This document shows, in pieces, positions 35,478 through 58,475 of a stretch of DNA of 64,000 nt; position 1 is the first letter of the stretch, and each line of letters opens with the position of its first letter. This DNA is from Pantanalinema sp. GBBB05. GTDB taxonomy: Bacteria; Cyanobacteriota; Cyanobacteriia; Leptolyngbyales; Leptolyngbyaceae. The notes below the pieces were generated by a model, which was not told where the DNA came from, made no database searches, and saw only the letters and a list, made by a program, of their open reading frames with translations. The position numbers and the translations under genes are program-made. The stretch lies in assembly GCF_016743235.1 (NCBI RefSeq), contig NZ_VRZD01000005.1, positions 175,622-239,621 on the forward strand, in the 5' to 3' direction.

Positions 35478-35876
35478 ATGTCAGATACAACGATCATTTT
35501 GGCGATCGCCGCCGGAGCCGTTCCTGGCGCCATCTCGCGCTATAAGATCACAGAATGGACCAAAGCCAAACTTGGCGCGAATTTTCCCCATGGCACATTC
35601 TGGATTAATGTGACCGGATGTTTGGCAATGGGGTTCTTTTTCACCCTCTCAACAGAGATTACAGGCTACCCCAAGGAACTGGATTTACTGATTAGAACTG
35701 GGTTTTTAGGCTCCTACACCACATTTTCTACTTACGGCTTCGATACGTTGACGCTCTGGCGCAGCAACCAACAGCCAGCGACCGTCTTTTACTGGGCAGG
35801 CAGTGCAATTTTGGGATTAGGTGCTGTGTTTTTGGGAGTCGCGATCGCAAAGCTATTGGTCAGTGCACCAGGTTGA
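35478..35876 (+). CDS. crcB: Fluoride ion channel CrcB/Fluc (paralog 1)
   Basis: About 130-aa 4-TM protein with Fluc hallmarks (GAISRY..., GTFWINVTGC, GFLGSYTTFSTY). Confidence 0.85.
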   Translation: MSDTTIILAIAAGAVPGAISRYKITEWTKAKLGANFPHGTFWINVTGCLAMGFFFTLSTEITGYPKELDLLIRTGFLGSYTTFSTYGFDTLTLWRSNQQPATVFYWAGSAILGLGAVFLGVAIAKLLVSAPG

Positions 35877-35914: not shown

Positions 35915-36319
35915 GTGAAAGCAATGCAGTTCTTGGTAGGTCGTCCGGTTTTAGCTATCGCGATCGGAGCCACTTTTGGGGCGCTTAGTCGCTTTTATAT
36001 CACTGAATTTGCTAAATTAATCGTTGGTGAGAATTTTGGGTATTACGGCACATTTTTCATTAATATATCGGGTTGTTTTCTCATTGCGTATATCTTAACT
36101 CTAGCGATCGAAAATATTCGCCATATCTCGCCCGAACTTCGGCTCATGACCACAACGGGCTTTTGTGGCGCATATACAACCTTTTCTACCTATGGTCTAG
36201 AATCCAAAGAGTTCTCAGATCAAGGAGATATCACAACATTTTTAATTTACTGGCTCGGTAGTGCGGTGATTGGCATGATTGGTGTACAACTTGGTGTTTT
36301 CTTAGCCAGAACCAAGTAA
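35915..36319 (+). CDS. crcB: Fluoride ion channel CrcB/Fluc (paralog 2)
   Basis: Second Fluc paralog (GALSRFYI..., GTFFINISGC, GFCGAYTTFSTY) 39 nt downstream of the first. Confidence 0.85.
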   Translation: MKAMQFLVGRPVLAIAIGATFGALSRFYITEFAKLIVGENFGYYGTFFINISGCFLIAYILTLAIENIRHISPELRLMTTTGFCGAYTTFSTYGLESKEFSDQGDITTFLIYWLGSAVIGMIGVQLGVFLARTK

Positions 36320-36562: not shown

Positions 36563-39106
36563 CTAAAACTGTAATGAGAATGAACCAATTACAGTCAGTG
36601 GTTCTCCTGGTTGGATGCCACTATCACTCCCAGTCACCGATCGGATGTAATTCGTGTTGCCAATATTACGGATGTTGACTGCAAAGCGGTAGTTATCGCG
36701 GCGATAAAAGATCGCGGCATTACCAATCAAATAATCACCGACCTGAAAGCTATTTGCCAAATCCCCATAGCGATTGCTCACATACTCAAATCCAGCTCCA
36801 AACCCTAACCCCTTTAAGCTACCCTGCTGAATTTCATAGGTTGTCCACAAACTGGCTTTATGTTTTGGAATCCCGAAAAACTCATTATCAATGACAGTTT
36901 CATCTGTATCCTCTGTAACGTTGGCATCAATGTAAGCATACGAGGTAATGATTTTCCAACCGGGTAATATTTCCCCAGCAATATCTAGTTCAATGCCCTG
37001 ACTCTTTTGCTCGCCCACCGCGATCGAAAAAAGCGGATTATCTGGATCAGTCGCCCCAACATTTTTCTTAGTAATGTTAAAGTACGTCAAGGTTGCCAAC
37101 AGTCGTTGGTCAAATAGTTCGGTTTTAACTCCCACCTCAAATCCTTCGCCCTCTTCTGGTTCAAGCACAGAACCACTGGCAGTGAGAGCCGTACTGGGCT
37201 TAAAGGATTGGGAGTAGTTGGCAAACAAAGTTAACTCGGGGATCGGACGATACAGCAAGCCAACACGTGGAGTTAGAGCATCATTGGTTTGTTCAGATTC
37301 ACTTTCATCCGTGAACGCCGTTGCAATATTCGTCACTTTTTGTGTCACTGTGTCGTAGCGCAATCCGGCAACCAGAATCAAATTATCGAGGAGGTAAATC
37401 TGATCTTGGAGGTAGATGCCAAGACGATTCGCTGTAGTGCGGTTGTCACCGAAGGGGGGTAAATCCGCCCGATCGGGTTTGGGAATCAGATCGTAATTTG
37501 GATTAAAGATATTCAGCGGAGTCGGATTGCCAAAGAAAGTTGTAATCCTGGAGTCACTATGGTTCAGATCAATCCCGGCTGTGAGGGTATGTCTGACTGA
37601 TCCAGTAGAGAATTTGCCAACAACATTCGTAAAGAGTGAATAAGAACGATCGGTTCCATCCTGATCCGCATAAAAGCGAATAATGTTATCACCAATAACG
37701 CGAAATGGCAGAGCGATAACGTTGTAATTGTAGTCATAGCTGATATAACGGAAGCTGTTACGAATTTTCCAGTCATCACTAAATCGATGTTCAAAGTTAT
37801 AGCCTGTACTCAAATAGTTCGTTGTCACTGAGTCATCAGGATGATTGGCAACAAACTCTCGTGACACAGGCGCTACACCATCTCCATAGCGAGTCAGCCC
37901 AAAATCCGCAGCACTTTGCTGGCGAATATATTCTAGATTGAAGGTAATATCGGTGCGATCGCCGATTTTCCAAGTTAGCGCTGGAGCCAGTAAGAGGCGA
38001 TTTGTGTCAGAATCAAAATCCCGAAAGGGTTTTTCATGCTGGAATAGTAAGTTTAAGCGATAGAGTAGATCGCCATTGTCCGTTAAAGGACCGGTCACAT
38101 CCAACCGAGGTCGGAGCAACTCCCGATTACCAAGCTGGAATTCTGCTTCCCGAAACGGTTCAGCCAATGGTTGCTTAGAGACTAGATTAATCACACCCCC
38201 TGGCTCAATTTGCCCATACAAAATTGAAGCGGGTCCCTTCAACACCTCAATCTGTTGCAGATTAGCAAGTTCGGGGATCCCCTGAAAGTTGCCATAGAGC
38301 CGATAGCCATCTCTTAGCACGGGTGCACCACTACTCACTTGGTTGCCAAACCCTCGGATACTAAAGGCAGCTTCACGTCCTCCATTCGTTCCTGTCGAAG
38401 ACACACCACTAATATTGGTCAGGGCATCTTCCAGCCGAATTGCCTGCTGATCTCGCAGAACTTCCTGGGGGACAACTTGCACGGAAAAGGGAGTTTCGAG
38501 AATGGGGGTGTCGGTTCCAGTTGCCGTTGAAGCATTGGGAACACGGTATTGACTGGGACGATCGCCCGTGACAATCACTTCCTCTTCCGCTGCTTCTGCA
38601 TCTTCTGGCAGCGTAGCCGTCGGGCTAAGTTGAGATTGCACTACCACCGTTGGAAACTCTGTTTCGCCAGTCACACGAATTTCTAAACGGTTGTTACCAC
38701 TCTGCGTGACAGTAACGGATTGAATCCCTGGAGCAGGAGCAGTTAGCTGAAATTCCTGACGATCGGGCAAGGCTAAGACCGCATTAGCAATTTCAGCAAT
38801 GAATGTCTTGGCTTCACGGCGGGTCGCTTCGGGTTGCAAGATGATATCCTGGTCAGTTTCCAGAATGATTTGAATCCCGCCCTCCGTGGAATTCACACGG
38901 ACACCTGTTACCTGAACGATCGCGGCTGGCTCAGTCTGTGCCAAGAGATCGGCAGCTTGAGTCCGAGGTTGCTCCCGCTCGGTCAACTGAATACCTTGAG
39001 CAGGCTGGTTCGAGAGTCGTTCCTCCTGGGCATCACTGATACCACTGGCACATAAAGCGATCGTTCCTGCTAATCCTACAGCAGTAGCGAGTTGATAACG
39101 TTTCAT
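36563..39106 (-). CDS. TonB-dependent outer-membrane receptor (siderophore-type) with N-terminal extension
   Basis: Signal peptide MKRYQLATAVGLAGTIALCASG; an extra N-terminal beta-rich domain of about 150 aa; plug domain (...VIVTGDR..., ...IEVLKGPASILYGQIEPGGVINLVSK); 22-strand barrel ending in the terminal F (...GSFSLQF). The true start is taken at ATG 39106 rather than the ORF-track start at 39169. Confidence 0.85.
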   Translation of the reverse strand: MKRYQLATAVGLAGTIALCASGISDAQEERLSNQPAQGIQLTEREQPRTQAADLLAQTEPAAIVQVTGVRVNSTEGGIQIILETDQDIILQPEATRREAKTFIAEIANAVLALPDRQEFQLTAPAPGIQSVTVTQSGNNRLEIRVTGETEFPTVVVQSQLSPTATLPEDAEAAEEEVIVTGDRPSQYRVPNASTATGTDTPILETPFSVQVVPQEVLRDQQAIRLEDALTNISGVSSTGTNGGREAAFSIRGFGNQVSSGAPVLRDGYRLYGNFQGIPELANLQQIEVLKGPASILYGQIEPGGVINLVSKQPLAEPFREAEFQLGNRELLRPRLDVTGPLTDNGDLLYRLNLLFQHEKPFRDFDSDTNRLLLAPALTWKIGDRTDITFNLEYIRQQSAADFGLTRYGDGVAPVSREFVANHPDDSVTTNYLSTGYNFEHRFSDDWKIRNSFRYISYDYNYNVIALPFRVIGDNIIRFYADQDGTDRSYSLFTNVVGKFSTGSVRHTLTAGIDLNHSDSRITTFFGNPTPLNIFNPNYDLIPKPDRADLPPFGDNRTTANRLGIYLQDQIYLLDNLILVAGLRYDTVTQKVTNIATAFTDESESEQTNDALTPRVGLLYRPIPELTLFANYSQSFKPSTALTASGSVLEPEEGEGFEVGVKTELFDQRLLATLTYFNITKKNVGATDPDNPLFSIAVGEQKSQGIELDIAGEILPGWKIITSYAYIDANVTEDTDETVIDNEFFGIPKHKASLWTTYEIQQGSLKGLGFGAGFEYVSNRYGDLANSFQVGDYLIGNAAIFYRRDNYRFAVNIRNIGNTNYIRSVTGSDSGIQPGEPLTVIGSFSLQF

Positions 39107-39274
39107 CCCATTCCTCACACAAAATTTAGTCGAATTTGGAAAAGCTTCTATCAGTAATGCAACAAGCACTTCAGTTCAGTCGCAATCTACAGACGTGTTA
39201 TTTCAGCAATACCAACTGAACTTGGCAAAGCTGTTATATCTAATTGCTTTCGACAACTCAAATATTGATCAGTT

Positions 39275-39679
39275 TTACAGTTGTTGTTGAATCCACTGCC
39301 GAGCTGCTGCGCAAGTTATAAACGCCTGACCGGGACAACCAAAAATTGCCGTGATTGTTTTAGCACTACTTCTCTGGCGGTCTGGTGGAATTTCCGGTAG
39401 ATCAATCACTAAGGCTAAACCAACACAGAATTGGCTAATTGCAGCTTTGTGCTGTTTTGCCCACTGCATCGTCAATCGATGGACCGCAGCAATCTGATCA
39501 GGATCGGGTTGACTAGACTCGGGGGCATAAGATTGATGCACAATCACTCCAAACTGATGCTTTTGAGCCAGCCAATGAGCGAACCGAGCTAAATAGGTTT
39601 TGGTATCCGCTAAAGTTGCCACCTGGTCAAATTGAATTGAGACGATCGGATAGGTTTCCTCATGGATCGTAAGCATCAC
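39275..39679 (-). CDS. Hypothetical protein
   Basis: 134-aa ORF between the MFS and receptor genes on the same strand; no motif recognised. Confidence 0.4.
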   Translation of the reverse strand: MMLTIHEETYPIVSIQFDQVATLADTKTYLARFAHWLAQKHQFGVIVHQSYAPESSQPDPDQIAAVHRLTMQWAKQHKAAISQFCVGLALVIDLPEIPPDRQRSSAKTITAIFGCPGQAFITCAAARQWIQQQL

Positions 39680-39687: not shown

Positions 39688-40947
39688 CTAAAGCAGATTC
39701 ACAGTCGAAGAATTAGACAGATAGGAACTGCCTAAATAGCGGGCAATTAACACAACACAAATGCTCATAATCATGGCACTGAGCACAAAAACACCTCGAT
39801 ACCCTAGACCACTTGCCAAAACTCCACTGATGGCAGCAGCAGGTAAACTTCCCATCGTGTTTAAGGAAGCTTGAATGGCATAGTCAGTAGCCGCAGTCTC
39901 TGGATAACTCTTATCCATCATGATGGTAAATGCTGTAGTCACCACCATCCCCAATGAACACGATGTGACTCCCACAATGCTGTACAACACAGATAATTGG
40001 GTCAATCCCAAGGTCGGTACGGCGTAAGTCAACATGCCGATCGCGGAAAGACTACTGGCAATCAGCAGCGTTCGTTGCCGACCTAAAGGTGGAATGAGCA
40101 AGCCAGCCGCGAGCGAACCAAAAATAGTCGAACAGGTTCCCACAATGCCCAGCAACCAACCCACCTCTGCTAAGGACAGTCCCAAATCAATCAGTAATGG
40201 TCGAAACATGGTGATAGAGAGACTATAACCAAAGTTATATAGCAGCAGAATACATAGCCAAACCTTCATGCCAGGGCGTTGGCAGAAGTGCAGGAAAATT
40301 GTGAAATAGTTACGGAGACGATCGCGGATGTTGGCAGAACGATCGTAGGAGTGGTTAACGACAACTTTGGGTTTTTCTTGATGCAATAGCACCGGTATGA
40401 GTGCTACCAGCATTAATCCAGCTAAGGTGAGTAAACTCCCTCTCCAACCCCAACGACTCAGCAATATCAGCATGCCACCGCCGCCGATCATACTCCCTAA
40501 TGAACCACCGACGCTTTGCACAGCGTTACCCAAGCCCCGTTCCTGAGGTTCCAGTAATCCTAAAGCTAAGGCATCTGTAGCAATATCCTGACTGGCACAG
40601 CCGATCGCGATTATCAGCATGCCCATCAGCACGATCGGCAACTGGGTGCTGACACTCAGCAGACTACACAGGGCAGTGACCATCGCGACTACGGATTGCA
40701 GCAAAATAATCCAAAACCGATAGTGTCCCAGAACGGTGAAGCTATAGCGATCGATCAGAGGTGACCAGAGAAACTTGAGCGTGATTGGCAGAACAACCAG
40801 CGGCAATAGCCCAATCGCCGTCAATGACAAGCCTTCTTGACGTAAGACCACCGGCAAAGCCTGATACAAAAATAGAAACGGCATAGATTGTGAGAGGTAC
40901 AAACTGCCGAGTAATCCCAACTTGTTGAAACGCCGAGCCTGAATCAC
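39688..40947 (-). CDS. MFS transporter
   Basis: About 12 TM helices, MFS-type loop motifs (GLLIPPLGRQRTLL; ...DRYSFTVLGHYRFW...). Confidence 0.75.
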   Translation of the reverse strand: MIQARRFNKLGLLGSLYLSQSMPFLFLYQALPVVLRQEGLSLTAIGLLPLVVLPITLKFLWSPLIDRYSFTVLGHYRFWIILLQSVVAMVTALCSLLSVSTQLPIVLMGMLIIAIGCASQDIATDALALGLLEPQERGLGNAVQSVGGSLGSMIGGGGMLILLSRWGWRGSLLTLAGLMLVALIPVLLHQEKPKVVVNHSYDRSANIRDRLRNYFTIFLHFCQRPGMKVWLCILLLYNFGYSLSITMFRPLLIDLGLSLAEVGWLLGIVGTCSTIFGSLAAGLLIPPLGRQRTLLIASSLSAIGMLTYAVPTLGLTQLSVLYSIVGVTSCSLGMVVTTAFTIMMDKSYPETAATDYAIQASLNTMGSLPAAAISGVLASGLGYRGVFVLSAMIMSICVVLIARYLGSSYLSNSSTVNLL

Positions 40948-41102: not shown

Positions 41103-42215
41103 TCAAACGGAATTTTTCCGCCGTTGCATCAGGTACTCATGCGGTCCCACCCCGAATTGTTTGCGAAATGCGGTATAGAACGAGCTACGGCTGGTATAGC
41201 CCACAGCGGCTGCCACCTGCTTAATTGCCATATCACTCGTTTCTAAGAGTTGCTGCGCCTGTTGCATGCGATCGTGATACAGGCATTCAAATGCTGTCAT
41301 ACCAAATACCTGCCGAAAACCACGCTTCAAGGTGCAATCATTGAGTCCAACCTGGCGGGCTAAAGCTATGAGTGAGGGCGGCTGCTTTAGTTGCTGACGC
41401 AGGATTTCTCGGGCTTGATAGATTTTTTTAGTATCCTCTGCTGATAATATTTTGGCTGAAGCTAGTGGCTGGTTCTGAGCGGCAATTTGCTCCAATCGAA
41501 GAGTAATTAGCTCTAAAGCCTTGCTTTCTAGATACAGTTGCCGAGATATACCTTGATAAGGACAATCGAGCAGTTGATTGAGAATGTTCTGCATGGCAAC
41601 AGTACTTCTGCCGCTGAGAACTGGCTCAAATTCCAGCCAAAGTTCAGCCTCGCCATCTGCTTCAGGCATTGGCTCCGAGCTAGATAACCTAGACAGCTCT
41701 GAATCATGTAGCATTGGCAGAGTCGCTCCTTGTCGATGCAGCAGAGAATTGTCCAAACCACTGCACTCAAGCGGCTCAAAATAACGTTTTGCCAGTTGCC
41801 GCAGGTTGGGGGAAAGCTGTTCCAATAATCCAGAGAAGTAAGATTCTAGCCGGGGAGTCGTCACAAACACTTCGACCCACAGGTGGCGCTGTCCAGACGG
41901 CAACTGGAGCCGTTTGCGATCGCCCAAATGCAGCATAGTTAAATTGCTGCCAGAATTATTTCCAACCAAGCAAAATTCAAACTCCAGAGAAGGACGAAAT
42001 AAAGCCACGTTTTGCTCGATTGCTTGGGTCAGTTCACAATCGACAATCACCAGTGATAAGCCACGGCTTAATTCAATTTCTCGTACAAACCCCTGCCCCA
42101 TAGCCACTGGAATCTGCCAAATTCGATCGCTAAGATCGGCGTGGAATAGCGGCAAGCCTACAGAAGTACTGGGCGTAAATAATTCATTCATCTGATGCAG
42201 AAACAGCGCTGTCAT
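41103..42215 (-). CDS. AraC-family transcriptional regulator with N-terminal effector domain (YbtA/PchR-like architecture)
   Basis: C-terminal dual HTH (...LIALARQVGLNDCTLKRGFRQVFGMTAFECL...VAAAVGYTSRSSFYTAFRKQFGVGPHEYL). It is divergently transcribed from the biosynthetic genes. Confidence 0.8.
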   Translation of the reverse strand: MTALFLHQMNELFTPSTSVGLPLFHADLSDRIWQIPVAMGQGFVREIELSRGLSLVIVDCELTQAIEQNVALFRPSLEFEFCLVGNNSGSNLTMLHLGDRKRLQLPSGQRHLWVEVFVTTPRLESYFSGLLEQLSPNLRQLAKRYFEPLECSGLDNSLLHRQGATLPMLHDSELSRLSSSEPMPEADGEAELWLEFEPVLSGRSTVAMQNILNQLLDCPYQGISRQLYLESKALELITLRLEQIAAQNQPLASAKILSAEDTKKIYQAREILRQQLKQPPSLIALARQVGLNDCTLKRGFRQVFGMTAFECLYHDRMQQAQQLLETSDMAIKQVAAAVGYTSRSSFYTAFRKQFGVGPHEYLMQRRKNSV

Positions 42216-42450: not shown

Positions 42451-42720
42451 ATGGGAGGAAATGAAGTGAATCGTTTAACCACGATGGAGACGCTGACAGC
42501 GATTCTGATTGATTTAGGGATTCCAGCCACAGCCCTCCAGGAAGACACCTTACTGCATGGACATTTAGGTTTGGATTCTGTGGAAACTGTCAAGCTGGCT
42601 CTGGAACTAAAACGGAGGCTAGACATCGACATGCCCTTGGGCACTCGTAATGACATGTCATTAGCCGAGATTTGTCAACGGGTAGAAGTAGCTCTATCCA
42701 CTCAATCCTCCGGCTGTTGA
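42451..42720 (+). CDS. Stand-alone acyl/aryl carrier protein
   Basis: About 85-aa acidic protein with the phosphopantetheine-attachment motif GLDSVETVKLALEL. Confidence 0.7.
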   Translation: MGGNEVNRLTTMETLTAILIDLGIPATALQEDTLLHGHLGLDSVETVKLALELKRRLDIDMPLGTRNDMSLAEICQRVEVALSTQSSGC

Positions 42721-42734
42721 AGGGAATTTAGAGA

Positions 42735-44318
42735 TTGCCAAAGGAAATTAGCATGGACAGTATTTCTGCACAGTTGCCAGATCACTTTAACGTGGCAGCT
42801 TATTTTCTCGAAAGGAACCTGGCACCGCAACGGGGCGATCGCATTGCCTACTATTATCGAGATCAGTCCTATACCTACACGCAAGTCTCTAGTTGGGTCA
42901 AGCGCACGGCTCACCTACTCGCTGAGTTGGGATTAGAGCGAGAAAATCGTCTGGCGATTCTGTTACCCGATACCCCCGAGTTTGTCTTTACTTTCTGGGG
43001 AGCGATCTGGTCAGGCAATATACCCGTTCCGATTAATACAACTTGCTCTCTGGAAGATATTCAGTATATTTTGCAAGACTGTCGCGCTAAAGTTTTGGTG
43101 ACGACTCAGGCATGGCTAGAGACCTTGTCGCCCATCCAATCCCCGTTTCTCCAGGAAACTCTTTTAATCGACGGGGAACAACCCCTAATCCCATTGTTAG
43201 CCCAACAGCAGGAGCGAGTGGCTTGGGCAGAAACGCATCCAGAAGAACCAGCTTTTTGGCTATATACCTCTGGCAGTACCGGACGACCGAAAGGAGCAAT
43301 TCACCTGCATCAAAGTATGGTGGTCTGTGCAGAACAGTATGGGAAAGCCGTGCTCAACTTACAGGCGGATGACATCCTTTATTCTGTAGCTAAAATGCCT
43401 TTTGCCTACGGGTTAGGCAACACGTTGTATTTTCCCATGGCAGTAGGTGCTGCTGCTGTTCTCTCTGATGCCGCCAATGTATTTGACATCATTGCGGATA
43501 TACAAACCTATCAACCTACAGTCTTCTTTGGCATTCCAGGAATCTATGCTGGCATGCTCTCGGTACAGGAGATTGCCCCACTCAATCCTACTACTTTGCG
43601 GTTATGTGTATCCGCTGCCGAACAACTGCCGAAAACAATTTGGCAGAAGTGGCAACAACAATATGGCATCGAAATTTGTGAGGGTATTGGCACAACTGAA
43701 TTACTGCACATTTTTCTATCAAATCGTCCAGGAGAATGTTGCCCAGGCAGTTCTGGTCGTCCCGTTCCTGGGTATGACGTTGCGGTACTCGATGCTGAGG
43801 GAAACCCCGTTCCGCCCGGTGAAATAGGTGTGCTAGAAGTGCGAGGGGAAAGTTTGATGCTAGGGTACTGGAACCGGTTGTCAGCCACCCGTCAAGCGTT
43901 GTGTGGCACAGCAATGCGGACTGGAGACAAGTATGTCAAAGATCCGGATGGCTATTTTTGGTTCATGGGACGCAATGACGACTGCTTTAAGGTAAATGGG
44001 ATGTGGGTGTCTCCATTTGAAGTAGAGGATGTTTTGCTGCAACATGAAAGCATTCTTGATGTAGCAGTTCTTCCAAGCACGGACAGTGGGGAAACCCTGA
44101 CACAAATAGTGGCTTATATCAGCCTTAAACTAGAATTTGTGCCCTCTACAGATTTAGAGCAACAAATTCGTCAACTCGCAAAGTTACAGTTACCGCACTT
44201 TAAAGCACCAAGTCGCATTCATTTTCTTCCCGCCCTACCACGTACCTCGACGGGCAAAATTCATCGTCAAGCATTACTGCACCAACGGGATCGTGATCCC
44301 GCCAGTGTTGAAATTTGA
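42735..44318 (+). CDS. Aryl-acid--CoA/ACP ligase of the benzoate-CoA ligase family (ANL superfamily)
   Basis: AMP-binding motif LYTSGSTGRPKG, the BCL-family hallmark AKMPFAYGLGN, and the C-terminal lysine region PRTSTGKIHR. Confidence 0.8.
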   Translation: MPKEISMDSISAQLPDHFNVAAYFLERNLAPQRGDRIAYYYRDQSYTYTQVSSWVKRTAHLLAELGLERENRLAILLPDTPEFVFTFWGAIWSGNIPVPINTTCSLEDIQYILQDCRAKVLVTTQAWLETLSPIQSPFLQETLLIDGEQPLIPLLAQQQERVAWAETHPEEPAFWLYTSGSTGRPKGAIHLHQSMVVCAEQYGKAVLNLQADDILYSVAKMPFAYGLGNTLYFPMAVGAAAVLSDAANVFDIIADIQTYQPTVFFGIPGIYAGMLSVQEIAPLNPTTLRLCVSAAEQLPKTIWQKWQQQYGIEICEGIGTTELLHIFLSNRPGECCPGSSGRPVPGYDVAVLDAEGNPVPPGEIGVLEVRGESLMLGYWNRLSATRQALCGTAMRTGDKYVKDPDGYFWFMGRNDDCFKVNGMWVSPFEVEDVLLQHESILDVAVLPSTDSGETLTQIVAYISLKLEFVPSTDLEQQIRQLAKLQLPHFKAPSRIHFLPALPRTSTGKIHRQALLHQRDRDPASVEI

Positions 44319-45664
44319 GTTTCTTTACGCAGGTATTTCCAATGTATCCAATTGCTACTGCCCCGATCGTTTATCACGAGTTATTCGTTCCAGTTCAGAA
44401 AGACCCGCAGTCCGTTTTACAGAATTTGCTAGAGATGGGATTGTTTTCGAGCTACATCCTGTATCACGGTGAGCAGGAGACCCGGATTGCTGGCAATGCT
44501 CTAGGTCGCATTACGGTGAGTACAGAAGCCATACAGGTTAATTGTCTGGGGGAAAGTCAGACTTACCCGATCGCAGATCCACTGCAACAGGTGGAGTCCG
44601 CCTTAGGATCGCTCCCGATTGAAGACTGGACTGCCTACGGTTACGTCAGCTTTGATCTGGCTCGCTTTTACTATCCCTATACTAAAGCGATGCCACACCC
44701 CCTCCTACATCTGTTTATCCCCGAAACTGAGCTACATATCACAGCGAAAGGAATGCGGATTAGAAGTGTGAAGTCACTACCCAAAATTCTGGAAGCCCTA
44801 TCGATAGAACGCCCCTGCCGCGCCTATACCGCTACCCCACCAGTCGTAGATTTTAGTGATCGTGACAACTATCAAACTCAAGTCAGTCAACTGATTCAGG
44901 CAATTCAAGCGGGACATTTACATAAAGCAATCCTATCTCGTTCCGTCACCCTGCAAGGTGAAATGGATGTGCTAGGAACCTACTGTTTAGGAGCGAGTAG
45001 TAATCCAGCCGTACGATCGTATTGTTTTCAGTTGGATGATTTATCTGCGGTTGGGTTTAGTCCCGAAATTTTAATGACTGTAGATGCCGATCGCGGTGTG
45101 ATTACTAATCCTCTCGCTGGAACTCGTCCACGCTCAGATAACCCTGAGCAAGACCAACAATGGCATCATGAGTTGTTTACGGATGCGAAAGAGGTGAAAG
45201 AACATGCCCTCTCGATTTGGCTCGCTCAAGCAGAGATGTCTTCATTTTGTGTACCTGACACCGTTCGCGTGTTTGATTTTATGCAGGTGAAACCCTACCG
45301 ATGCGTACAGCACTTGTCATCGCGGGTCGGTGGAGAGTTACAAGCTGGAAAAACCCTCTGGGATGCCCTGAAAGTTTTACTACCTGGGATTACAGTATCT
45401 GGAATTGACAAACAGCAAGCATTAGCCTGGATCGATCGCTTAGAAGCTACGCCCAGAGGTATCTATGCCGGGGGCATCGGCTGGATTAATCACCAGGGAA
45501 TTGCCGATTTTGCGATCGCGATTCGTTCTGTCTATCAATATGGTGATGCTATCCATTTCAATGCCGGAGCTGGAATTGTAGCGGAATCCGTACCAGAAAA
45601 CGAGTATCTGGAGTCTGTAAACAAAATGAATACAATGTTGACAAATTTAGTGTTAAAGCCGTAA
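44315..45664 (+). CDS. Chorismate-utilising enzyme (MST family), salicylate-synthase/isochorismate-synthase-like
   Basis: C-terminal chorismate-binding signature (...LAGTRPRS..., ...RGIYAGGIGWINHQGIADFAIAIRS..., ...AGAGIVAESVPENEYLES). At 449 aa its size matches MbtI/Irp9-type salicylate synthases. No amidotransferase partner gene is adjacent. Confidence 0.7.
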   Translation: MSFFTQVFPMYPIATAPIVYHELFVPVQKDPQSVLQNLLEMGLFSSYILYHGEQETRIAGNALGRITVSTEAIQVNCLGESQTYPIADPLQQVESALGSLPIEDWTAYGYVSFDLARFYYPYTKAMPHPLLHLFIPETELHITAKGMRIRSVKSLPKILEALSIERPCRAYTATPPVVDFSDRDNYQTQVSQLIQAIQAGHLHKAILSRSVTLQGEMDVLGTYCLGASSNPAVRSYCFQLDDLSAVGFSPEILMTVDADRGVITNPLAGTRPRSDNPEQDQQWHHELFTDAKEVKEHALSIWLAQAEMSSFCVPDTVRVFDFMQVKPYRCVQHLSSRVGGELQAGKTLWDALKVLLPGITVSGIDKQQALAWIDRLEATPRGIYAGGIGWINHQGIADFAIAIRSVYQYGDAIHFNAGAGIVAESVPENEYLESVNKMNTMLTNLVLKP

Positions 45665-45834: not shown

Positions 45835-47127
45835 TTATTCGCGATCGTGATCCGGTAGTAAATCTTCAGCCTGACGCAGTACAGGGATCATATATCCCCC
45901 TACCCCAATCAGAATCATACTCATGGCAGCCAGGATTACTAGTACAGCAATGCCAGCCCCCATATCCGTCCCCAGCCAAGGTGCCCAGAGTGAAGAGAAC
46001 CATCCACCCGAATTCATCATCGGTGCAAAAACGCGATCGACTAATGGTCCAGCCAGCAAGCTCGCCATAGCTCCCACAATTAAACCCAGCGTATGGGCTG
46101 TCGCTAACACTCGTCCTTGAACTGCTACCGGAACCTTGGCATACCAGATGGCATAGCTGGAACTAAATGCCAGGGGAATATGGAATGCCGAGAAAAACTG
46201 CGCTCCCATCCAAATCCAAGGAATGCGACCTAATCCTAATAAGAGATCACCCATACCTGCACCAATAAATCCCAATAACATGCCATTCATACGCCGATGG
46301 AAACCACCCAAAATACTTAAACTGGTAGCACCAACTACACCGCCTACCCCTGCTGCAATCACAACAGTGCTGAGCACTTGAGCGTTCCCATCAGTGCGGG
46401 CAAGAATGAGCGGTTGGGATAAGGTTTCACTCAGTTGGTGAGTAAACAGAAATAAGCAAAAAATTAGCGTCATTGCCAGCAGACTAGGTCTGGCTAAGAT
46501 GTAATTTAGCCCCCAGAATAGTTGCTGCCAAATTGACTTGCCATTGATTTGTTCTGCTTCCGCATGATCGGGTTGGGGAATTTTGACTAGTAATACGCTG
46601 GTCATACCGATCGCAAACGTTATTAGATCAATCAACAGAATCCCCATTAATCCGATCGTGGGGTAAAGGCTACCCACTAAAGCAGGAGCAAGAATCGCGG
46701 AACTGTAGTCCACTACAGCACGCATACTACTCACGCGGGTATACTGCTGCTTTGACACCATTAAAGGAATCGAGGCAATATACGCCAGTCCTTGAATATG
46801 CCCAAAACAACCATAGGCAATAGCTAATCCATAGAGATGCCAGAGCTGTAGATGGGCGGTGAAGTAAAGCCCACCGATCGCTATCGTACAGAGCGCTACA
46901 CTGGCATCACTAAAAATCATTAAGAATTTGCGATTGCAGCGATCGATCACTAATCCAGAAAAGATACCAATTAAAATCTGTGGTAACTGAAAAAAGAAAC
47001 TTAGGAGGGCGATCGCAGTCGTCTCCTGGGTCAATTGCCAAATCCAGATGGTCAGTGCAAATTGAGTCATTGTGGTACCAATAGCAGATGCCATCTGACC
47101 ACTCCAGAGAATTGTGAAAGTTCGCAC
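45835..47127 (-). CDS. MFS transporter (putative product exporter, EntS/YbtX-like placement)
   Basis: 430 aa, about 12 TM. It is embedded within the biosynthetic genes. Confidence 0.75.
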   Translation of the reverse strand: MRTFTILWSGQMASAIGTTMTQFALTIWIWQLTQETTAIALLSFFFQLPQILIGIFSGLVIDRCNRKFLMIFSDASVALCTIAIGGLYFTAHLQLWHLYGLAIAYGCFGHIQGLAYIASIPLMVSKQQYTRVSSMRAVVDYSSAILAPALVGSLYPTIGLMGILLIDLITFAIGMTSVLLVKIPQPDHAEAEQINGKSIWQQLFWGLNYILARPSLLAMTLIFCLFLFTHQLSETLSQPLILARTDGNAQVLSTVVIAAGVGGVVGATSLSILGGFHRRMNGMLLGFIGAGMGDLLLGLGRIPWIWMGAQFFSAFHIPLAFSSSYAIWYAKVPVAVQGRVLATAHTLGLIVGAMASLLAGPLVDRVFAPMMNSGGWFSSLWAPWLGTDMGAGIAVLVILAAMSMILIGVGGYMIPVLRQAEDLLPDHDRE

Positions 47128-47426: not shown

Positions 47427-49034
47427 GTGCAATCGGTACTACTAGAGTGCCCACTCAAGAAGAATTTAAGTTTTAACCTATCTGCCATGCTCACACAGTC
47501 AGTTGGTATTCGCTCACTGGCAGTCAGTTTTCCCAGTACTATCCGACCAAATCAGTATTGGTTAGACCAATTTCCCGACTTGTTTGTTGCCAGTGAACAA
47601 CGACAAGCCCGACAACATCAATCGCTAACAGTTCAACCTGCACAGACCAGATTTGAACAAGCTGGCATTGATCTCTGGTTACAGGAAGTTACCCCATACC
47701 TCGCCGACCCATTTCGCGGGAGTGTGGAACGTCGGGTGCTGCTCCCTCATGAGTCATCGCTAATGCTGGAGTGCCAAGCAGCTCAGGAAGCTCTCCAGGC
47801 AGCAGAGCTGTCACCGGATCAGATTGATCTGGCGATCGTGACCTCTCTATTTCCCGATGCCGTGGGTCCTGGTTCAGCCGCTGACTTTGCTCGGGCATTG
47901 GGCTTATCTTGCCCCGCTTGGAGTTTGGAATCTACTTGTAGCAGTGCATTGGTCGCTTTACAAACAGCCCAAGCATTCGTGCAACACGGAACTTATCGCA
48001 CCGTTTTAATTGTTGTTTCACACGTTGGTTCTCGAGCTGTCAATGAGGCTGATACCCTGTCGTGGTCCTTAGGCGATGGGGCAGGAGCCTGGATCGTTAG
48101 TCATGTTCCTGCCGATCGGGGCATTCTCAGTACACATATCATGCCAACTACCGCTACTTGTGGTGCTTATGTCCATGAGCTGGTGATTGATCAGTCGGGT
48201 GCACCTCGGATCCAAACTCGCACTGGTGATCAAGCAAGTCGGTTAGCTGAGACAGCAGTAGATACTGTTCGCCAATGCTGTCAGGCAGCTGTGCAAGCGG
48301 CAGGGGTTAGCCTCGATCAAATTGCCTGCTTTGCCATCAATACTCCGACCGCCTGGTATGCCAGCGTCTGTGCCAAGGCGTTAGGAATTGATCCGGCACG
48401 AATCATGAATCTCTACCCGGTATATGCCAACATTGGTCCAGTATTTCCCATGGCAAATCTGCATCATGCCGCCACAACAGGACAACTGCAAGCCCATGAT
48501 CTGGTGCTGGTATACACTAATGGTGCAGCCGCAACCGCAGCCGCAACAGTGATGCGGTGGGGAAAGGTGGCTTTGGGAACATCTCCTACCCAATCATGCC
48601 AGCGATCGCCACAGCCTAGGGAATTATCTAGAGCAGCCCCGATCTCTAGCCTGAATGAACTCGAAAAAGAAGAGGTAGGACTAACAGATCTACGATCGCA
48701 ATTGCTGGCAGCTCTTCCCCGCGATCGCCACTCTATTCTGGAAGCTGCTTTGCTGGAATGGTTGGCACAGGCACGGCAACTTGAGCCAGCTCAACTTAAC
48801 AGCCAATCCCTATTAACCACAGTATTGGATTCTTTAATGGCAATCGTTCTGCGTCATCGGCTCGAAACAGAGTTGCAGATACCAGTACCAATGGAGGCAT
48901 TTTTTGGTGAGCAGACGATCGCAGATCTAATTAATTTTTTACTTCAACAACTGATGATCTCAGAATTAGTTGAGACAAATGCGATCGTCTTAAATTCCAG
49001 CCATTCGGTAGAACGAGAGATCTTCAGTTTATAA
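47427..49034 (+). CDS. KAS III (FabH)-like enzyme fused to a C-terminal carrier-protein (ACP/PCP-like) domain
   Basis: FabH-like fold with nucleophile elbow LESTCSSALVAL and Asn motif YANIGP. A C-terminal extension of about 100 aa carries the phosphopantetheine motif VLDSLMAIVLRHRLETEL. Confidence 0.65.
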   Translation: MQSVLLECPLKKNLSFNLSAMLTQSVGIRSLAVSFPSTIRPNQYWLDQFPDLFVASEQRQARQHQSLTVQPAQTRFEQAGIDLWLQEVTPYLADPFRGSVERRVLLPHESSLMLECQAAQEALQAAELSPDQIDLAIVTSLFPDAVGPGSAADFARALGLSCPAWSLESTCSSALVALQTAQAFVQHGTYRTVLIVVSHVGSRAVNEADTLSWSLGDGAGAWIVSHVPADRGILSTHIMPTTATCGAYVHELVIDQSGAPRIQTRTGDQASRLAETAVDTVRQCCQAAVQAAGVSLDQIACFAINTPTAWYASVCAKALGIDPARIMNLYPVYANIGPVFPMANLHHAATTGQLQAHDLVLVYTNGAAATAAATVMRWGKVALGTSPTQSCQRSPQPRELSRAAPISSLNELEKEEVGLTDLRSQLLAALPRDRHSILEAALLEWLAQARQLEPAQLNSQSLLTTVLDSLMAIVLRHRLETELQIPVPMEAFFGEQTIADLINFLLQQLMISELVETNAIVLNSSHSVEREIFSL

Positions 49035-49200: not shown

Positions 49201-52200
49201 TTGAGTTTGTATATGGACTTACACTCACTCCTAATTTCACTTGCCCAACAGGGAATTAAATTAGCCCTAGAGGATGACTCTCTCCAGGTTGATGCTCCTA
49301 AAGGAGCTTTAACACCTGAACTACGAGACCTACTGAGACAACAAAAGACTGAGATTTTGACCCTGTTACGACAACACCGTGTTAGCAATTTAGTCACTGA
49401 TTTACCCATAATTGTTCCCGATCTAGAGTCCCGATTTGAGCCATTTCCGCTGACTGATATGCAGCATGCTTTTTGGATTGGGCGTAGTGGCATCTTGGAA
49501 CTGGGTCATGTTTCTAATCATGGTTATTACGAAATTGAAGGGAAACACTTAGATCTGGAGCGACTAAACTCTACTCTGCAACAATTGATTGCTCGCCATG
49601 ACATGCTCCGGGCCGTTGTGTTACCCGATGGACGGCAACAAATTTTGTCAGACGTGCCACCTTACCAAATCAAGGTGGTAGATTTGCGGGAGGTTTCCCC
49701 CGCAACAGTGGACTCCCAACTAGCAGAAATCCGGCAGGAAATGTCCCATCAGGTTTTACCTGCCGATCGCTATCCCTTGTTTGAATTCCGCGCCACGCAG
49801 TTAGCTGGAGATCGGGTTCGTTTGCATATCAGTTACGATCTGCTGGTATTTGATGCCTGGAGTTTGTTCCGCTTGTTTGAAGAGTGGTTTCAACTGTATC
49901 AACATCCCGATCGCGATTTACCACCGTTAGAACTCTCTTTTCGGGATTATGTCCTGGCAGAGCAATCTCTCCCTCAGACTCAGCTTTATCAGCGATCGCA
50001 GGAGTACTGGCTCAACCGAATTGACAGCCTACCCCCTGCTCCAGATCTCCCCTTAGCCCAAAATCCCCAACAACTACAACATCACCAATGTCGTCGCTAT
50101 GACGGACGGATGGCACCTGATGTTTGGCAAGCACTGAAGCAAAAAGCAACGAATGCTGGGCTAACTCCATCCGGGCTATTACTCGCAGCTTTTGCCGAAG
50201 TGATTACCCTGTGGAGCCAGAATCCCCAGTTCACATTGAATCTGGCGCTGTTTAATCGCTTACCGATGCATCCCCAGGTGAATCAGATTTTGGGTGACTT
50301 TACCTCTGTCACCTTGTTAGCCGTAGACAACTCCCCGTATGAACCGTTCCGCGATCGGGCATTACGCATTCAGCAGCAACTCTGGCAAGATCTGGAACAC
50401 CGTTACTTCAGTGGGGTGCGAGTCACCCGCGAGTTAACTCGACGCCAAGGAAATGTTCCCAATGCCATGCCCGTGATTTTCACCAGTACTTTAGGCTTTG
50501 CTGGAATTGGGCAGGAAACTTTAACGTTTAGTCATTTTGGCGAACTCGTTTACGGTATTAGCCAAGCTTCTCAAGCCTGGATGGATATCCAAGTTTGGGA
50601 AGAGAAAGACACATTAACCTTCAATTGGGATGTGGTTGAAGACCTGTTCCCAGAAGGTTTAGTTGCCGATATGTTTGATAGCTATTGCCGATTGCTGAGC
50701 CAACTTGCCACCTCGGATGCTAGTTGGGTAGAACACAACCCTGCACGATTACCACCTGCTCAGCTCGCTCAACGTCAGGTGGTCAATGCCACTGATGCTC
50801 CCATCCCAGACACGTTGTTACACGAATTATTTTTAGCACAGGTTCAACAATGTCCCAACCACCCAGCCATCATCACGTCACAACAAACCCTGACGTATCA
50901 AACAGTATGCGATCGAGCGTGTCAGGTGGGGCATCGCCTGCGCCGGTTAGGGATAACGCCGAATCATCTAGTTGCTGTAGTCATGGACAAGGGCTGGGAA
51001 CAGGTTGTTGCCGGGCTGGGAATTCTGATCGCCGGTGCGGCCTATGTGCCAATCGCGCCGGATCTACCGCCAGAACGGTTCCAGTATTTACTGAACCAGA
51101 GTGAAGTTCAGCTCGTTCTCACTCAATCCTGGCTGGATCAAACGTTGCCATGGCTAGAGCATATACCGCGATTGTGTGTAGACGGTTCAGATTTTGCGAC
51201 TGAGCCTCAAACCCTACTGGAGTCAGTGCAAACTCCAGACGATCTAGCGTATGTCATCTATACATCTGGTTCCACCGGATTACCCAAAGGTGTGATGATT
51301 ACTCACCGCAATGTTGCCAATGTGGTGATTTACACGAATCAACGCTTCCAAGTGAGTTCCCACGATCGCGCTTTAGCCTTGACCGCCTTAAATCATGATT
51401 TGTCAGTTTATGACATGTTTGGGTTACTCAGTGCCGGAGGCGCGATCGTCATACCGGATGCCTGTTTAGTCAAAAATCCACAACATTGGACGAAACTGAT
51501 CCAGCAACACCAGGTCACGATCTGGAACTCAGTGCCAGCGATGATGGAAATGTGGATCAATACCGTGCTAGCAGATCGTCTACATGATCGCTCAGAAGCG
51601 GCATTTTCCAGTTTGCGCTTGGCAATTTTGGGTGGCGATTGGTTACCCGTGTCTCTCCCCGATCGCCTGCGAGCCTTAGTCCCCAAGATTCAATTACTCA
51701 GCATTGGGGGACCGACGGAAACGACAATTTGGAATATTGGCTATGAGGTCAGTGACGTTGATCCGAGCTGGAAAAGTATTCCCTACGGTCAGCCGATGGC
51801 AAATGCCAAATATTTCATTTTGAATCATGCCTTGGCAGACTGTCCAGTTTGGGTTCCCGGTCAAATGTACTGTGCTGGTGTGCAGTTAGCTCAGGGGTAC
51901 TGGCAAGATCCTGAAAAAACGAATGCCAGCTTTATTATCCATCCTGACACAGGGGAACGGCTTTACCGAACGGGCGATCGCGGGCGCTATTTGCCCAATG
52001 GCATGATTGAGTTTTTAGGGCGAGTTGATTTCCAAATTAAGTTGCGGGGTCATCGCATTGAAGCAGGAGAAATTGAAGCCACGTTAGTGCAGCATCCAAT
52101 GGTGAAAGCGGTGGTGATTAAGGTGATTGGAGTCCATCAGCATGCCCAACTCATCGCTTATGTCGTACCACAAGCCGCAACCTTGCCAACAGTGGCAGAA

Positions 52201-52695
52201 CTCAGTCAATTCCTCAGCCGTAAACTGCCAGCCTACATGGTACCAGAGCGGTTTCTGTTTCTGGAAGCATTACCACTATCAGCTAACGGCAAAGTCGATC
52301 GACAGGCACTTCCTACAGAGGATATCCAGTTGCAAACCCGCCCAGTGGTCCATACAGCCCCTCAAACTGAGATCGAGCAAACGATCGCAACAGTATTTCA
52401 AGAGGTGTTAGGCATGGCAACCGTCAGCGTGACTGATAACTTCTTTGAGTTAGGGGCAAACTCGTTGTTGATGACACTCGTCTACCGCCAGTTAGGCGCC
52501 ATATTGCCCGAGGAAATGCGATCGATTGCCCTAGTTGATTTATTTCGGTATCCAACGGTCAGAACGTTAGCCCAACAGTTGACTCAAGTGGCACAGAGCC
52601 ACGATTCAGAGCCACAACTAATTGAGACTACCCAGAAATTGAGTCAGGGCAAACATCGGCTCAAACAACGCTTCGAGAAATCAAGACTGGCTTAG
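49201..52695 (+). CDS. NRPS module: heterocyclisation (Cy) - adenylation (Cys-type) - PCP
   Basis: Cy motifs FPLTDMQHAFWIGR, RHDMLRAVVLPDGRQQIL, DLLVFDAWS (DxxxxDxxS), TPSGLLLAAFAEVITLWS, LGDFTS, PVIFTSTLG, QAWMDIQVWEE. A-domain LAYVIYTSGSTGLPKGV, NHDLSVYD (Stachelhaus D-L-..-Y as in Cys codes), GGPTETTIWN, YRTGDRGRY. PCP FFELGANSLL. Confidence 0.9.
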   Translation: MSLYMDLHSLLISLAQQGIKLALEDDSLQVDAPKGALTPELRDLLRQQKTEILTLLRQHRVSNLVTDLPIIVPDLESRFEPFPLTDMQHAFWIGRSGILELGHVSNHGYYEIEGKHLDLERLNSTLQQLIARHDMLRAVVLPDGRQQILSDVPPYQIKVVDLREVSPATVDSQLAEIRQEMSHQVLPADRYPLFEFRATQLAGDRVRLHISYDLLVFDAWSLFRLFEEWFQLYQHPDRDLPPLELSFRDYVLAEQSLPQTQLYQRSQEYWLNRIDSLPPAPDLPLAQNPQQLQHHQCRRYDGRMAPDVWQALKQKATNAGLTPSGLLLAAFAEVITLWSQNPQFTLNLALFNRLPMHPQVNQILGDFTSVTLLAVDNSPYEPFRDRALRIQQQLWQDLEHRYFSGVRVTRELTRRQGNVPNAMPVIFTSTLGFAGIGQETLTFSHFGELVYGISQASQAWMDIQVWEEKDTLTFNWDVVEDLFPEGLVADMFDSYCRLLSQLATSDASWVEHNPARLPPAQLAQRQVVNATDAPIPDTLLHELFLAQVQQCPNHPAIITSQQTLTYQTVCDRACQVGHRLRRLGITPNHLVAVVMDKGWEQVVAGLGILIAGAAYVPIAPDLPPERFQYLLNQSEVQLVLTQSWLDQTLPWLEHIPRLCVDGSDFATEPQTLLESVQTPDDLAYVIYTSGSTGLPKGVMITHRNVANVVIYTNQRFQVSSHDRALALTALNHDLSVYDMFGLLSAGGAIVIPDACLVKNPQHWTKLIQQHQVTIWNSVPAMMEMWINTVLADRLHDRSEAAFSSLRLAILGGDWLPVSLPDRLRALVPKIQLLSIGGPTETTIWNIGYEVSDVDPSWKSIPYGQPMANAKYFILNHALADCPVWVPGQMYCAGVQLAQGYWQDPEKTNASFIIHPDTGERLYRTGDRGRYLPNGMIEFLGRVDFQIKLRGHRIEAGEIEATLVQHPMVKAVVIKVIGVHQHAQLIAYVVPQAATLPTVAELSQFLSRKLPAYMVPERFLFLEALPLSANGKVDRQALPTEDIQLQTRPVVHTAPQTEIEQTIATVFQEVLGMATVSVTDNFFELGANSLLMTLVYRQLGAILPEEMRSIALVDLFRYPTVRTLAQQLTQVAQSHDSEPQLIETTQKLSQGKHRLKQRFEKSRLA

Positions 52696-57404: not shown

Positions 57405-58475
57405 ATGAAATTCAGTCTATTCTATTTTTCTGGTGATGGTTCTACAACTGATCACAACAAGTACCGCCTATTAATCGAAGGGGCTAAGTTTGCCGATCGT
57501 CACGGGTTTGCCGGAGTTTGGATTCCTGAACGACATTTTGACGCTTTTGGCGGACTTTATCCCAATCCTGCTGTGGCTGGAGCCGCGATCGCGATGCTCA
57601 CGGAGCATATCCAAATCCGTTCTGGCAGTGTGGTGATGCCTCTACAACATCCATTGCGAGTGGCTGAAGAATGGGCAATGGTGGATAACCTATCGCAAGG
57701 TCGGGTCAGTCTTTCGTTTGCTCCAGGCTGGCATCCTCATGACTTTGTTCTGTATCCCGAAAATTACGCCAACAAAAAAGATATTATGTGGCGCGATATC
57801 CAAGTGGTGCAGCGACTCTGGCAGGGTGAGGCGATCGAGCTGACGGGAGGAAATGGCAAATTAGCCCAGATTCGGACGTTTCCGAGACCCTTGCAAACCC
57901 GCCTCCCCATTTGGATTACCGCTCTCTCAGACGATACCTTTGTGGAAGCAGGCAGAATTGGCGCACATATCCTGACGTCACCGCTGTATCAAAGTGTGGA
58001 TGAGATTTTTCGAAAAATCACCTTATATCGTCGATCGCGGGCACAGCATGGTCATGATCCCCAAAGCGGTCAGGTGGCATTGATGATTCATACCTTCCTG
58101 GGCAGTGATATCCAGGTTGTGAAAGCCCAGGTCAAATCACCCTTCAAAAATTATCTGAAAACTCATTTTGATTTAGTCGTCAAATCAGCAGGGGATCTAC
58201 GATTTTCGATCGATCCTCATACGCTCACACCTCAAGACCTGGATGATTTATTAGAGTTCAGTTTTGAGACTTACTTCAATGGCAAAGTACTGATGGGCAC
58301 TCCCGATCATTGCCAAACACTGATCAGCTATTTTCAACAAGCTGGAGTGAATGAAATTGCCGCTTTGATTGACTTTGGGATTGAATTCGATGATGTGATG
58401 GCAAGTTTAAATTTGCTGAAAGACATGAATCGCGATTCCCATCAAACTCGATCTTTACAAGCTTCCTGTTCTTGA
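57405..58475 (+). CDS. Luciferase-like monooxygenase (LLM) family flavin-dependent oxidoreductase
   Basis: Typical LLM N-terminus MKFSLFYFSGDG...RLLIEGAKFADRHGFAGVWIPERHF. Confidence 0.8.
   Translation: MKFSLFYFSGDGSTTDHNKYRLLIEGAKFADRHGFAGVWIPERHFDAFGGLYPNPAVAGAAIAMLTEHIQIRSGSVVMPLQHPLRVAEEWAMVDNLSQGRVSLSFAPGWHPHDFVLYPENYANKKDIMWRDIQVVQRLWQGEAIELTGGNGKLAQIRTFPRPLQTRLPIWITALSDDTFVEAGRIGAHILTSPLYQSVDEIFRKITLYRRSRAQHGHDPQSGQVALMIHTFLGSDIQVVKAQVKSPFKNYLKTHFDLVVKSAGDLRFSIDPHTLTPQDLDDLLEFSFETYFNGKVLMGTPDHCQTLISYFQQAGVNEIAALIDFGIEFDDVMASLNLLKDMNRDSHQTRSLQASCS

Follow-up and report, generated by a model that had tools for sequence, protein, structure and literature searches.

How does a cyanobacterium make an aryl acid, activate it and hand it over as the first building block of a metallophore? 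The question is raised by three genes of Pantanalinema sp. GBBB05 that lie at positions 42451-45664 of a 64,000-nt stretch of contig NZ_VRZD01000005.1 (hereafter the window; all coordinates are window positions unless another record is named). The three open reading frames (ORFs), all on the + strand and in the same direction, encode a stand-alone carrier protein, an adenylating enzyme of the benzoate-CoA ligase (BCL) family and a chorismate-using MST enzyme, as an earlier note on this DNA had claimed. All three ORFs and the motifs it quoted are present, and the hidden Markov model E-values, 1e-72 to 1e-149, are well outside chance. These genes are the opening of a siderophore-type hybrid cluster of nonribosomal peptide synthetases (NRPSs) and polyketide synthases (PKSs), and we read them as the salicylate starter-unit cassette of a metallophore made by that cluster, a reading to which, taken as a whole, we assign a probability of roughly 0.75. 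Published descriptions of the cassette exist for other cyanobacteria, with a biochemical test in one: it was drawn in 2014 as T, CoAL, SalS and ‘KACP’ in the anachelin cluster of Anabaena cylindrica (PMC4247773), and was described in 2024 for the leptochelin cluster (PMC11240249) and in 2025 for the fatuamide cluster (FatB/D/E/G/H). In fatuamide, leptochelin and anachelin, all of them salicylate-capped metallophores, the salicylate sits directly on a thiazoline or oxazoline, and the window would add one more such cluster, from a Pantanalinema-like cyanobacterium.

The origin of the aryl acid is the first part of the question. The MST enzyme (PF00425, E 1e-72) finds its best NCBIfam model in the salicylate synthase family TIGR03494 with 322.7 bits, as against 253 for archaeal-type TrpE and 173 for isochorismate synthase, and all TrpE and PabB models stay far under their cut-offs. 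Its best PDB relatives are MbtI and Irp9 (1e-57 to 1e-62), the MbtI alignment beginning near residue 40 and reaching the C-terminus, that of Irp9 beginning near residue 90; TrpE chains follow at 1e-45 over the C-terminal domain only, and EntC at 1e-14. Among MST enzymes, TrpE carries a Gln at the position of MbtI K205, and PabB has a nucleophilic Lys in the motif PIKGT. The window enzyme has the Lys general base and the motif PLAGT, with Ala at the PabB lysine position, which argues for water as the nucleophile and not for an aminating MST enzyme. In a gap-free HMMER alignment to MbtI 2g5f, all 17 named MbtI active-site residues are identical (list and residue roles from PMC8008425): the general base K205 (Irp9 K193) and general acid E252 (Irp9 E240), found in hlhKAILSR and GFSPE, the Mg2+ ligand equivalents E294, E297, E431 and E434, and further I207, L268, G270, T271, H334, T361, Y385, R405, G419, G421 and K438. 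The inspection of the general base and acid that had been proposed earlier thus comes out as Lys and Glu, in line with the salicylate synthase that the earlier note had favoured. It had also reported no adjacent amidotransferase or isochorismate-pyruvate lyase gene, and this holds: Pfam finds neither a glutamine amidotransferase nor a chorismate-mutase-like lyase domain in window ORFs of at least 150 aa or in any cluster gene, a relaxed tblastn with an approximate PchB sequence gives no lyase match, and the intergenic gaps within the cluster, at most 300 nt, are too small for such a gene, although one may lie elsewhere in the genome. The enzyme is 65% identical to gloJ of Gloeocapsa PCC 7428 and 58% to its Leptothoe counterpart, and these comparisons support its assignment as a predicted bifunctional salicylate synthase of the MbtI/Irp9 type.

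The ligase, which contains FWLYTSGSTGRPKG and SVAKMPFAYGLGN and matches PF00501 and PF13193, passes the ‘benzoate-CoA ligase family’ model TIGR02262 with 497.3 bits (cut-off 375.25), and its adenylation core motifs (YTSGSTGRPKG, and K502 of TGKIHR, the C-terminal catalytic Lys) are invariant across 21 relatives. A look-up of the exact ligase sequence gave no record; the nearest relatives in identity are a Logan contig at 94% and then Pantanalinema rosaneae CENA516 (L001), which is syntenic, at 84-86%. Its best PDB matches are the anthranilate-CoA ligase AuaEII (4wv3, 376 bits) and benzoate-CoA ligase (2v7b, 369 bits), while EntE/DhbE-type models are absent from its 25 best NCBIfam families and DhbE, EntE and BasE chains from its 60 best PDB matches, so that the placement in the BCL family and outside the EntE/DhbE/YbtE type stands. 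What such an enzyme may do with salicylate is best seen in Gloeocapsa PCC 7428, where a protein 69% identical to it (P0058) is gloE/gloSCL, an identity that follows from the gene order of the locus (L082), which matches Table S1 of PMC11744666 gene by gene. When given ATP, Mg2+ (as MgCl2) and salicylate but no CoA, gloSCL converts holo-gloACP, the holo form of an acyl carrier protein (ACP), into salicyl-gloACP in vitro, as seen by liquid chromatography-mass spectrometry, and salicyl-gloACP then primes a ketosynthase-chain length factor pair (KS-CLF) (PMC11744666). The mechanistic guess made for the window, a BCL-type aryl:ACP ligase loading a stand-alone carrier, is thus backed by experiment in an ortholog and, by analogy, the window ligase is supported as a putative salicylate:ACP ligase. 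Its predicted acceptor, the carrier protein upstream, matches PF00550 (E 1.2e-5), contains the motif GLDSVETV, the Ser of which is the phosphopantetheine attachment site, and is 46% identical to gloACP (= gloC) of the same Gloeocapsa strain.

Two of the starts are exaggerated by the longest-ORF coordinates, which we checked against the gene calls of the 94%-identical and fully syntenic Logan contig. There the three cassette genes are called at 84, 521 and 440 aa, and the matching starts in the window are GTG 42466, ATG 42753 (with AAGGA before it) and ATG 44342. The carrier, for which 85 aa had been given earlier and which has a longest ORF of 89 aa, therefore probably starts at GTG 42466 and has 84 aa; the ligase probably starts at ATG 42753 and has 521 aa, rather than at the TTG 42735 that opens its longest ORF (42735-44318). 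For the MST enzyme the earlier length of 449 aa is correct as the longest ORF (44315-45664), but the 4-base overlap of its start with the ligase stop requires TTG 44315 as a start codon, and since the relative's gene call (start 23 nt past the ligase stop, 440 aa) corresponds to ATG 44342, the overlap is probably a longest-ORF artefact and not real.

Seen across cyanobacteria, the arrangement is a common one. A scan with one genome per species gave 208 genomes with a ligase relative, and the counts that follow cover the best 80 loci, all cyanobacterial, with 59-84% ligase identity and flanks of 10 kb, searched by tblastn with the window proteins. An ACP homolog stands directly 5′ of the ligase in all 80 and a homolog of the salicylate synthase (SalS) is found in 75; of the five exceptions, four are left with less than 4 kb of sequence on the downstream side of the ligase, and one, L065, has its flank complete. 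Leptothoe EHU-05/26/07-4, which produces leptochelin, and Anabaena cylindrica (L029) carry this cassette as well. Carrier, BCL-family ligase and SalS are thus the standard arrangement in cyanobacteria, and the earlier description of the cassette as unusual holds only against the enterobacterial and mycobacterial systems.

What the cassette feeds differs among these loci. In 53 of the 80 a fusion of a KASIII-like domain with an ACP (hereafter KASIII-ACP) is present, always beside an NRPS with a docking domain and heterocyclization (Cy), adenylation (A) and thiolation (T) domains, with or without an intervening halogenase; a Cy NRPS module was also seen in 47 of these 53 loci. Another 13 carry instead a type II PKS set of KS, CLF, ACP, phosphopantetheinyl transferase (PPTase), ligase, cupin, CMD, two cyclases, SalS and thioesterase, with neither KASIII-ACP nor NRPS in the fetched flanks. 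For the remaining 14, contig ends or the 10-kb flank limit what can be seen, and a third architecture that we had considered for these loci, which show neither KASIII nor type II PKS, was dropped on account of the contig ends and of the Acaryochloris marina plasmid pREB1 (L083/L084, record 196655-251394), where KASIII-ACP lies beyond the flank. On pREB1, KASIII-ACP and the first NRPS occupy 196.6-201.8 kb, whereas ACP, PPTase, ligase and SalS occupy 247.7-251.4 kb; both groups belong to one large NRPS/PKS cluster, of which the latter forms the far end, and transposase genes separate them. Supply cassette and KASIII-ACP are therefore separable, and KASIII-ACP stays by the first NRPS even where the ligase is about 50 kb away; the free ACP has no association with NRPSs comparable to that of KASIII-ACP. 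As side observations, the pREB1 plasmid is typed as conjugative by MOB-suite, and the type II PKS architecture, which is that of Gloeocapsa glo and thermorubin-like, is spread over Pleurocapsales, Chroococcidiopsidales and Leptolyngbya-like genomes (L067 at 6632-16570, L023, L026, L036, L044, L057, L058, L060, L063, L066, L068, L069 and L071; also L082).

In NRPS contexts, then, KASIII-ACP is a fourth member of the cassette, which the three-gene extent given earlier, correct for its three genes, had missed because the fusion lies outside those coordinates. Published cluster descriptions leave the question of why a KASIII-ACP that lacks the catalytic His should stand between salicyl-ACP and the first Cy module. 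The protein falls far short of the FabH cut-offs of 249 and 292 bits, at 112 and 107.6 bits respectively. The equivalent of FabH Cys112, which in the window is Cys171 of the 535-aa ORF and Cys151 of the 515-aa form, is kept in 54 of 54 family members and that of Asn274 in 52 of 52 sequences, whereas 52 of 53 have Asn in place of His244, so that the family is Cys/Asn/Asn where FabH/KASIII condensing enzymes have a Cys-His-Asn triad. A mafft alignment, a pairwise one by phmmer and the match lines of HMMER to FabH structures all back the placement of the His244 position. In FabH this His drives malonyl decarboxylation, and its loss argues against condensation and fits a Cys-mediated acyl transfer. 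The C-terminal tail of the fusion is also conserved, with an (E)EREKLSL type that reads EREIFSL in the window; TubC_N β-hairpin docking domains recognize a short peptide at the C-terminus of the partner protein upstream. We infer that KASIII-ACP brings the assembly line its salicyl group, which it receives from the free ACP.

These parts can be assembled into a possible route. Active-site conservation and orthology suggest that the MbtI/Irp9-type enzyme would convert chorismate via isochorismate to salicylate and pyruvate in one Mg2+-dependent active site; that its orthologs lie in clusters with salicylate-bearing products is indirect support for this product. By the precedent of gloSCL and gloACP, the ligase would then adenylate salicylate and thioesterify it directly onto the adjacent free holo-ACP, with no CoA intermediate. 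The KASIII-like domain may next take the salicyl group on its conserved Cys and pass it to its own C-terminal ACP, and the tail of the fusion would dock on the TubC_N β-hairpin domain of the first module, which consists of Cy, A and a peptidyl carrier protein (PCP). The Cy motif (DLLVFDAWS) and the Cys-like A4 motif (HDLSVYD) of this module, the A domain of which is probably Cys-specific, suggest a hydroxyphenyl-thiazoline as in fatuamide, and the module would thus condense the salicyl group with Cys and cyclize the product before PKS and then NRPS modules extend it; for docking and extension we draw on the domain order and on the structures of fatuamide, leptochelin and anachelin. After the heterocycle we expect a ketoreduced unit from malonate and then a further amino acid. 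An AraC regulator, two MFS pumps and a TonB-dependent receptor would round off the siderophore locus.

The boldest part of this route concerns the fusion. We hypothesize that the Cys-Asn-Asn KASIII-ACP is a previously undescribed NRPS loading adaptor, in which the aryl group that a BCL-family ligase has loaded on a free carrier is re-parked on the adaptor's own ACP, where it may be tailored, for example by a halogenase, before it passes to the Cy domain through docking of the adaptor's tail on TubC_N; we consider the chances for and against this to be about even. If true, the adaptor would make a portable cassette for salicyl-ACP supply, one that type II PKSs also use, compatible with NRPS lines. 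The placement of the halogenase suggests halogenation of carrier-bound salicylate, and the halogenase-bearing subset includes the leptochelin producer; leptochelins bear bromo- or chloro-salicylate (PMC11240249). Separately, we note that a flavin-dependent halogenase (PF04820, about 555 aa) lies between KASIII-ACP and Cy-A-T in about ten loci (L054 at 16684-18351, L042 at 14518-16176, L081 at 18018-19666, L025, L043, L049, L056, L059, L061 and L062), its gene in L081 being called in two pieces of 244 and 343 aa.

Several points weigh against the salicylate cassette reading or its details. The functions given to the window proteins are predictions from sequence and orthology, and the transfer by KASIII-ACP, its docking and the preference of the A domain for Cys are predicted from sequence. 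The MST enzyme falls 2.4 bits short of the TIGR03494 cut-off (325.15), yet stands 69 bits over TrpE. The nearest solved structures to the ligase are those of true CoA ligases, AuaEII and benzoate-CoA ligase, and the authors of the gloSCL study still name their enzyme a CoA ligase (PMC11744666). No PPTase was detected in the window ORFs scanned: the start codons of ACP and ligase are at least 620 nt apart in 58 of the 80 loci, and a PPTase gene occupies this gap in all four cases checked (L067, L081, L082 and A. marina), while none lies there in the window or in the relatives closest to it. The need for two carriers, one free and one fused, is unaccounted for, and the fatuamide paper leaves FatG without a role and draws FatB as the carrier. 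We found no literature role for KASIII-ACP in salicylate transfer, a weak negative since subscription papers were thinly covered.

Alternative explanations have to be weighed at each step of the route. The small deficit to TIGR03494, with TrpE models next at 253 bits, might be taken to mean that the MST enzyme is an isochorismate synthase or an ammonia-dependent anthranilate or aminodeoxychorismate synthase and that the starter is another acid, but the Lys base in place of the TrpE Gln, the Ala in place of the PabB Lys, the complete set of MbtI active-site residues, the lack of an amidotransferase or lyase gene in the window, and orthologs both in clusters with salicylate products and in salicylate-primed clusters of the glo/thermorubin type make this highly improbable. 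A route by way of CoA, in which the ligase releases free salicyl-CoA and the KASIII-like domain takes the aryl group from CoA and loads a carrier, much as PqsA and PqsD work, so that the free ACP is not the direct acceptor, would suit the CoA ligases that head the ligase's structural matches and the presence of PqsD (3h76) among the PDB matches of the KASIII domain; in aurachin priming, too, as Pistorius et al. reportedly found in 2011, transfer of the aryl group from CoA to ACP is the task of a second enzyme. We nonetheless think it quite unlikely, as the gloSCL ortholog charges holo-ACP without CoA (PMC11744666), an ACP gene adjoins the ligase in every one of the 80 loci, including the 13 type II PKS loci with no KASIII in the fetched flanks, and the A. 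marina KASIII gene is 50 kb from its ligase.

Once salicylate is on the free ACP, this carrier might donate it directly to the Cy domain, leaving KASIII-ACP to proofread, to re-load stalled carriers or to supply another unit. Other siderophore systems have stand-alone aryl carriers that serve as direct donors to C or Cy domains, for example VibB in vibriobactin, and the published schemes, with FatB as carrier and no role for FatG, agree with such a donor. Against it stand the constant position of KASIII-ACP upstream of a docking-domain Cy module, its tail of a type that pairs with β-hairpin docking domains, and the lack of any such NRPS association for the free ACP; moreover, the salicylate of the known products is joined straight to the heterocycle, which leaves KASIII-ACP no further unit to supply. 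We judge direct donation unlikely. Least credible of all is true condensing activity of the KASIII domain, which would join salicyl to malonate before the hand-over in the manner of PqsD or FabH: the domain does have the Pfam ACP_syn_III N- and C-terminal domains and the Cys and Asn274 equivalents, but Asn replaces the triad His in all but one of 53 sequences, the scores lie far below the FabH cut-offs, and the products of the fatuamide, leptochelin and anachelin clusters bear salicylate directly on the thiazoline or oxazoline.

The preferred route, with transfer by way of KASIII-ACP, combines features of several known systems. The Gloeocapsa gloACP/gloSCL/gloJ set (46, 69 and 65% identity; its thermorubin-like counterpart is TheJ/TheO of Laceyella sacchari) has the same three proteins in the same order, but there salicyl-ACP primes a KS-CLF type II PKS, a PPTase gene lies between ACP and ligase, and the flanks have no KASIII-ACP or NRPS, whereas the window cassette would serve an NRPS/PKS line through the fusion. 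The fatuamide, leptochelin and anachelin clusters share with the window the succession of ACP, BCL-family ligase, SalS, KASIII(-ACP) and Cy-A-T, with AraC, TonB-dependent receptor and MFS genes alongside. They differ in their downstream modules, the window cassette lacks a PPTase gene and a halogenase, and the window and Leptothoe proteins are only 51-66% identical. The logic of yersiniabactin, mycobactin and pyochelin initiation is also the same, from chorismate through salicylate, salicyl-AMP and the salicyl thioester of a carrier to Cy heterocyclization with Cys, using Irp9/MbtI (or PchA and PchB), then YbtE/MbtA/PchD, then the aryl carrier protein (ArCP) domain of HMWP2/MbtB/PchE. The window salicylate synthase belongs to the Irp9/MbtI family, but the ligase is of the BCL and not the EntE/DhbE/YbtE type, the carrier is free and not an N-terminal ArCP domain, and a KASIII-like-ACP is added.

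Activation of an aryl acid by a BCL-family enzyme and its two-step delivery to a carrier or a KASIII Cys recall AuaEII/AuaE/AuaB of aurachin biosynthesis and PqsA/PqsD. Those systems use aryl-CoA, which the window ligase's ortholog bypasses, and PqsD is a condensing enzyme whereas the window KASIII domain has no catalytic His. Closer in working principle are ChlB3, ChlB6, CerJ and AfcL, in which a FabH fold uses its Cys to shuttle acyl or aryl groups without condensation; ChlB3, for instance, transfers 6-methylsalicyl between ACPs. The likeness is one of working principle only, as AfcL and the KASIII-like acyltransferases have a Cys/His/Asp triad (PMC12186527), unlike the Cys/Asn/Asn of the window family with its own fused ACP and tail. 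The comparisons confirm that salicylate activation in cyanobacteria relies on a BCL-family ACP ligase and not on a YbtE/MbtA-type enzyme. An answer for KASIII-ACP would serve the engineering of aryl starters and halogenated salicylates into NRPS/PKS lines and would also improve automated starter-unit annotation in cyanobacterial clusters.

The features of the cluster are collected in Table 1.

Table 1. Genes of the putative salicylate-capped metallophore cluster, by position in the window.
Feature	Position	Strand	Matches and remarks
TonB-dependent receptor, AMIN + Plug + barrel	36563..39169	-	PF00593, PF07715, PF11741
134-aa conserved protein without family	39275..39679	-	between TonB-dependent receptor and MFS gene
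MFS transporter	39688..40947	-	PF07690
AraC-family regulator, divergent from cassette	41103..42215	-	PF12833, PF00165
Carrier protein, stand-alone	42451..42720 (longest ORF)	+	PF00550
BCL-family adenylating enzyme	42753..44318 (longest ORF from TTG 42735)	+	TIGR02262
Predicted MbtI/Irp9-type salicylate synthase	44342..45664 (longest ORF from TTG 44315)	+	TIGR03494 best model, PF00425
Second MFS transporter, inside cassette	45835..47127	-	PF07690, PF05977; conserved in L001, L085
KASIII-like-ACP fusion	47487..49034 (longest ORF from 47427)	+	PF08545, PF08541, PF00550
First NRPS module, TubC_N-Cy-A-PCP	49213..52695	+	PF18563, PF00668, PF00501, PF00550
Type I PKS module, ketosynthase-acyltransferase-ketoreductase-ACP	52713..57332	+	Pfam
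MupA/Atu3671-family luciferase-like monooxygenase	57405..58475	+	TIGR04020, 474.6 bits
NRPS module, C-A-PCP-C (C, condensation)	58492..63189	+	Pfam, two condensation-domain stretches; HHLITDG at residue 1258

Among the flanking genes, the receptor is likely to serve ferri-siderophore uptake and the MFS transporter inside the cassette siderophore export, as their families suggest, and the divergent AraC arrangement recurs in the Leptothoe and A. marina clusters. The C-A-PCP-C NRPS is the last gene placed in the cluster, which may extend beyond the window end. Two small ORFs accompany these genes. That of 134 aa has no Pfam or NCBIfam match but recurs in the same position, with 42-75% identity, in seven loci (L001, L005-L009 and L085). 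That of 162 aa (63274-63762, + strand), immediately 3′ of the last NRPS, has only sub-threshold zinc-ribbon or RING-like Pfam matches and no homolog among the 80 loci searched. Both were considered as the missing PPTase and rejected, as neither has such a Pfam match even at E values up to 1.

Elsewhere the window carries housekeeping, signalling and transposase genes unrelated to the cluster, and an Rfam scan of the whole window at gathering thresholds found no RNA family. Just beyond the receptor gene, tandem ORFs for small membrane proteins (35478-35876 and 35915-36319, both +) have counterparts in the 94%-identical relative that carry PF02537 (CRCB, fluoride channel), and the Rfam scan shows no fluoride riboswitch in the window. 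The unrelated left half includes a DDE_3 transposase fragment of 187 aa (24321-24884, +) and a protein of 667 aa in which HEAT repeats occur together with a NACHT C-terminal Cys/His motif (19990-21993, -).

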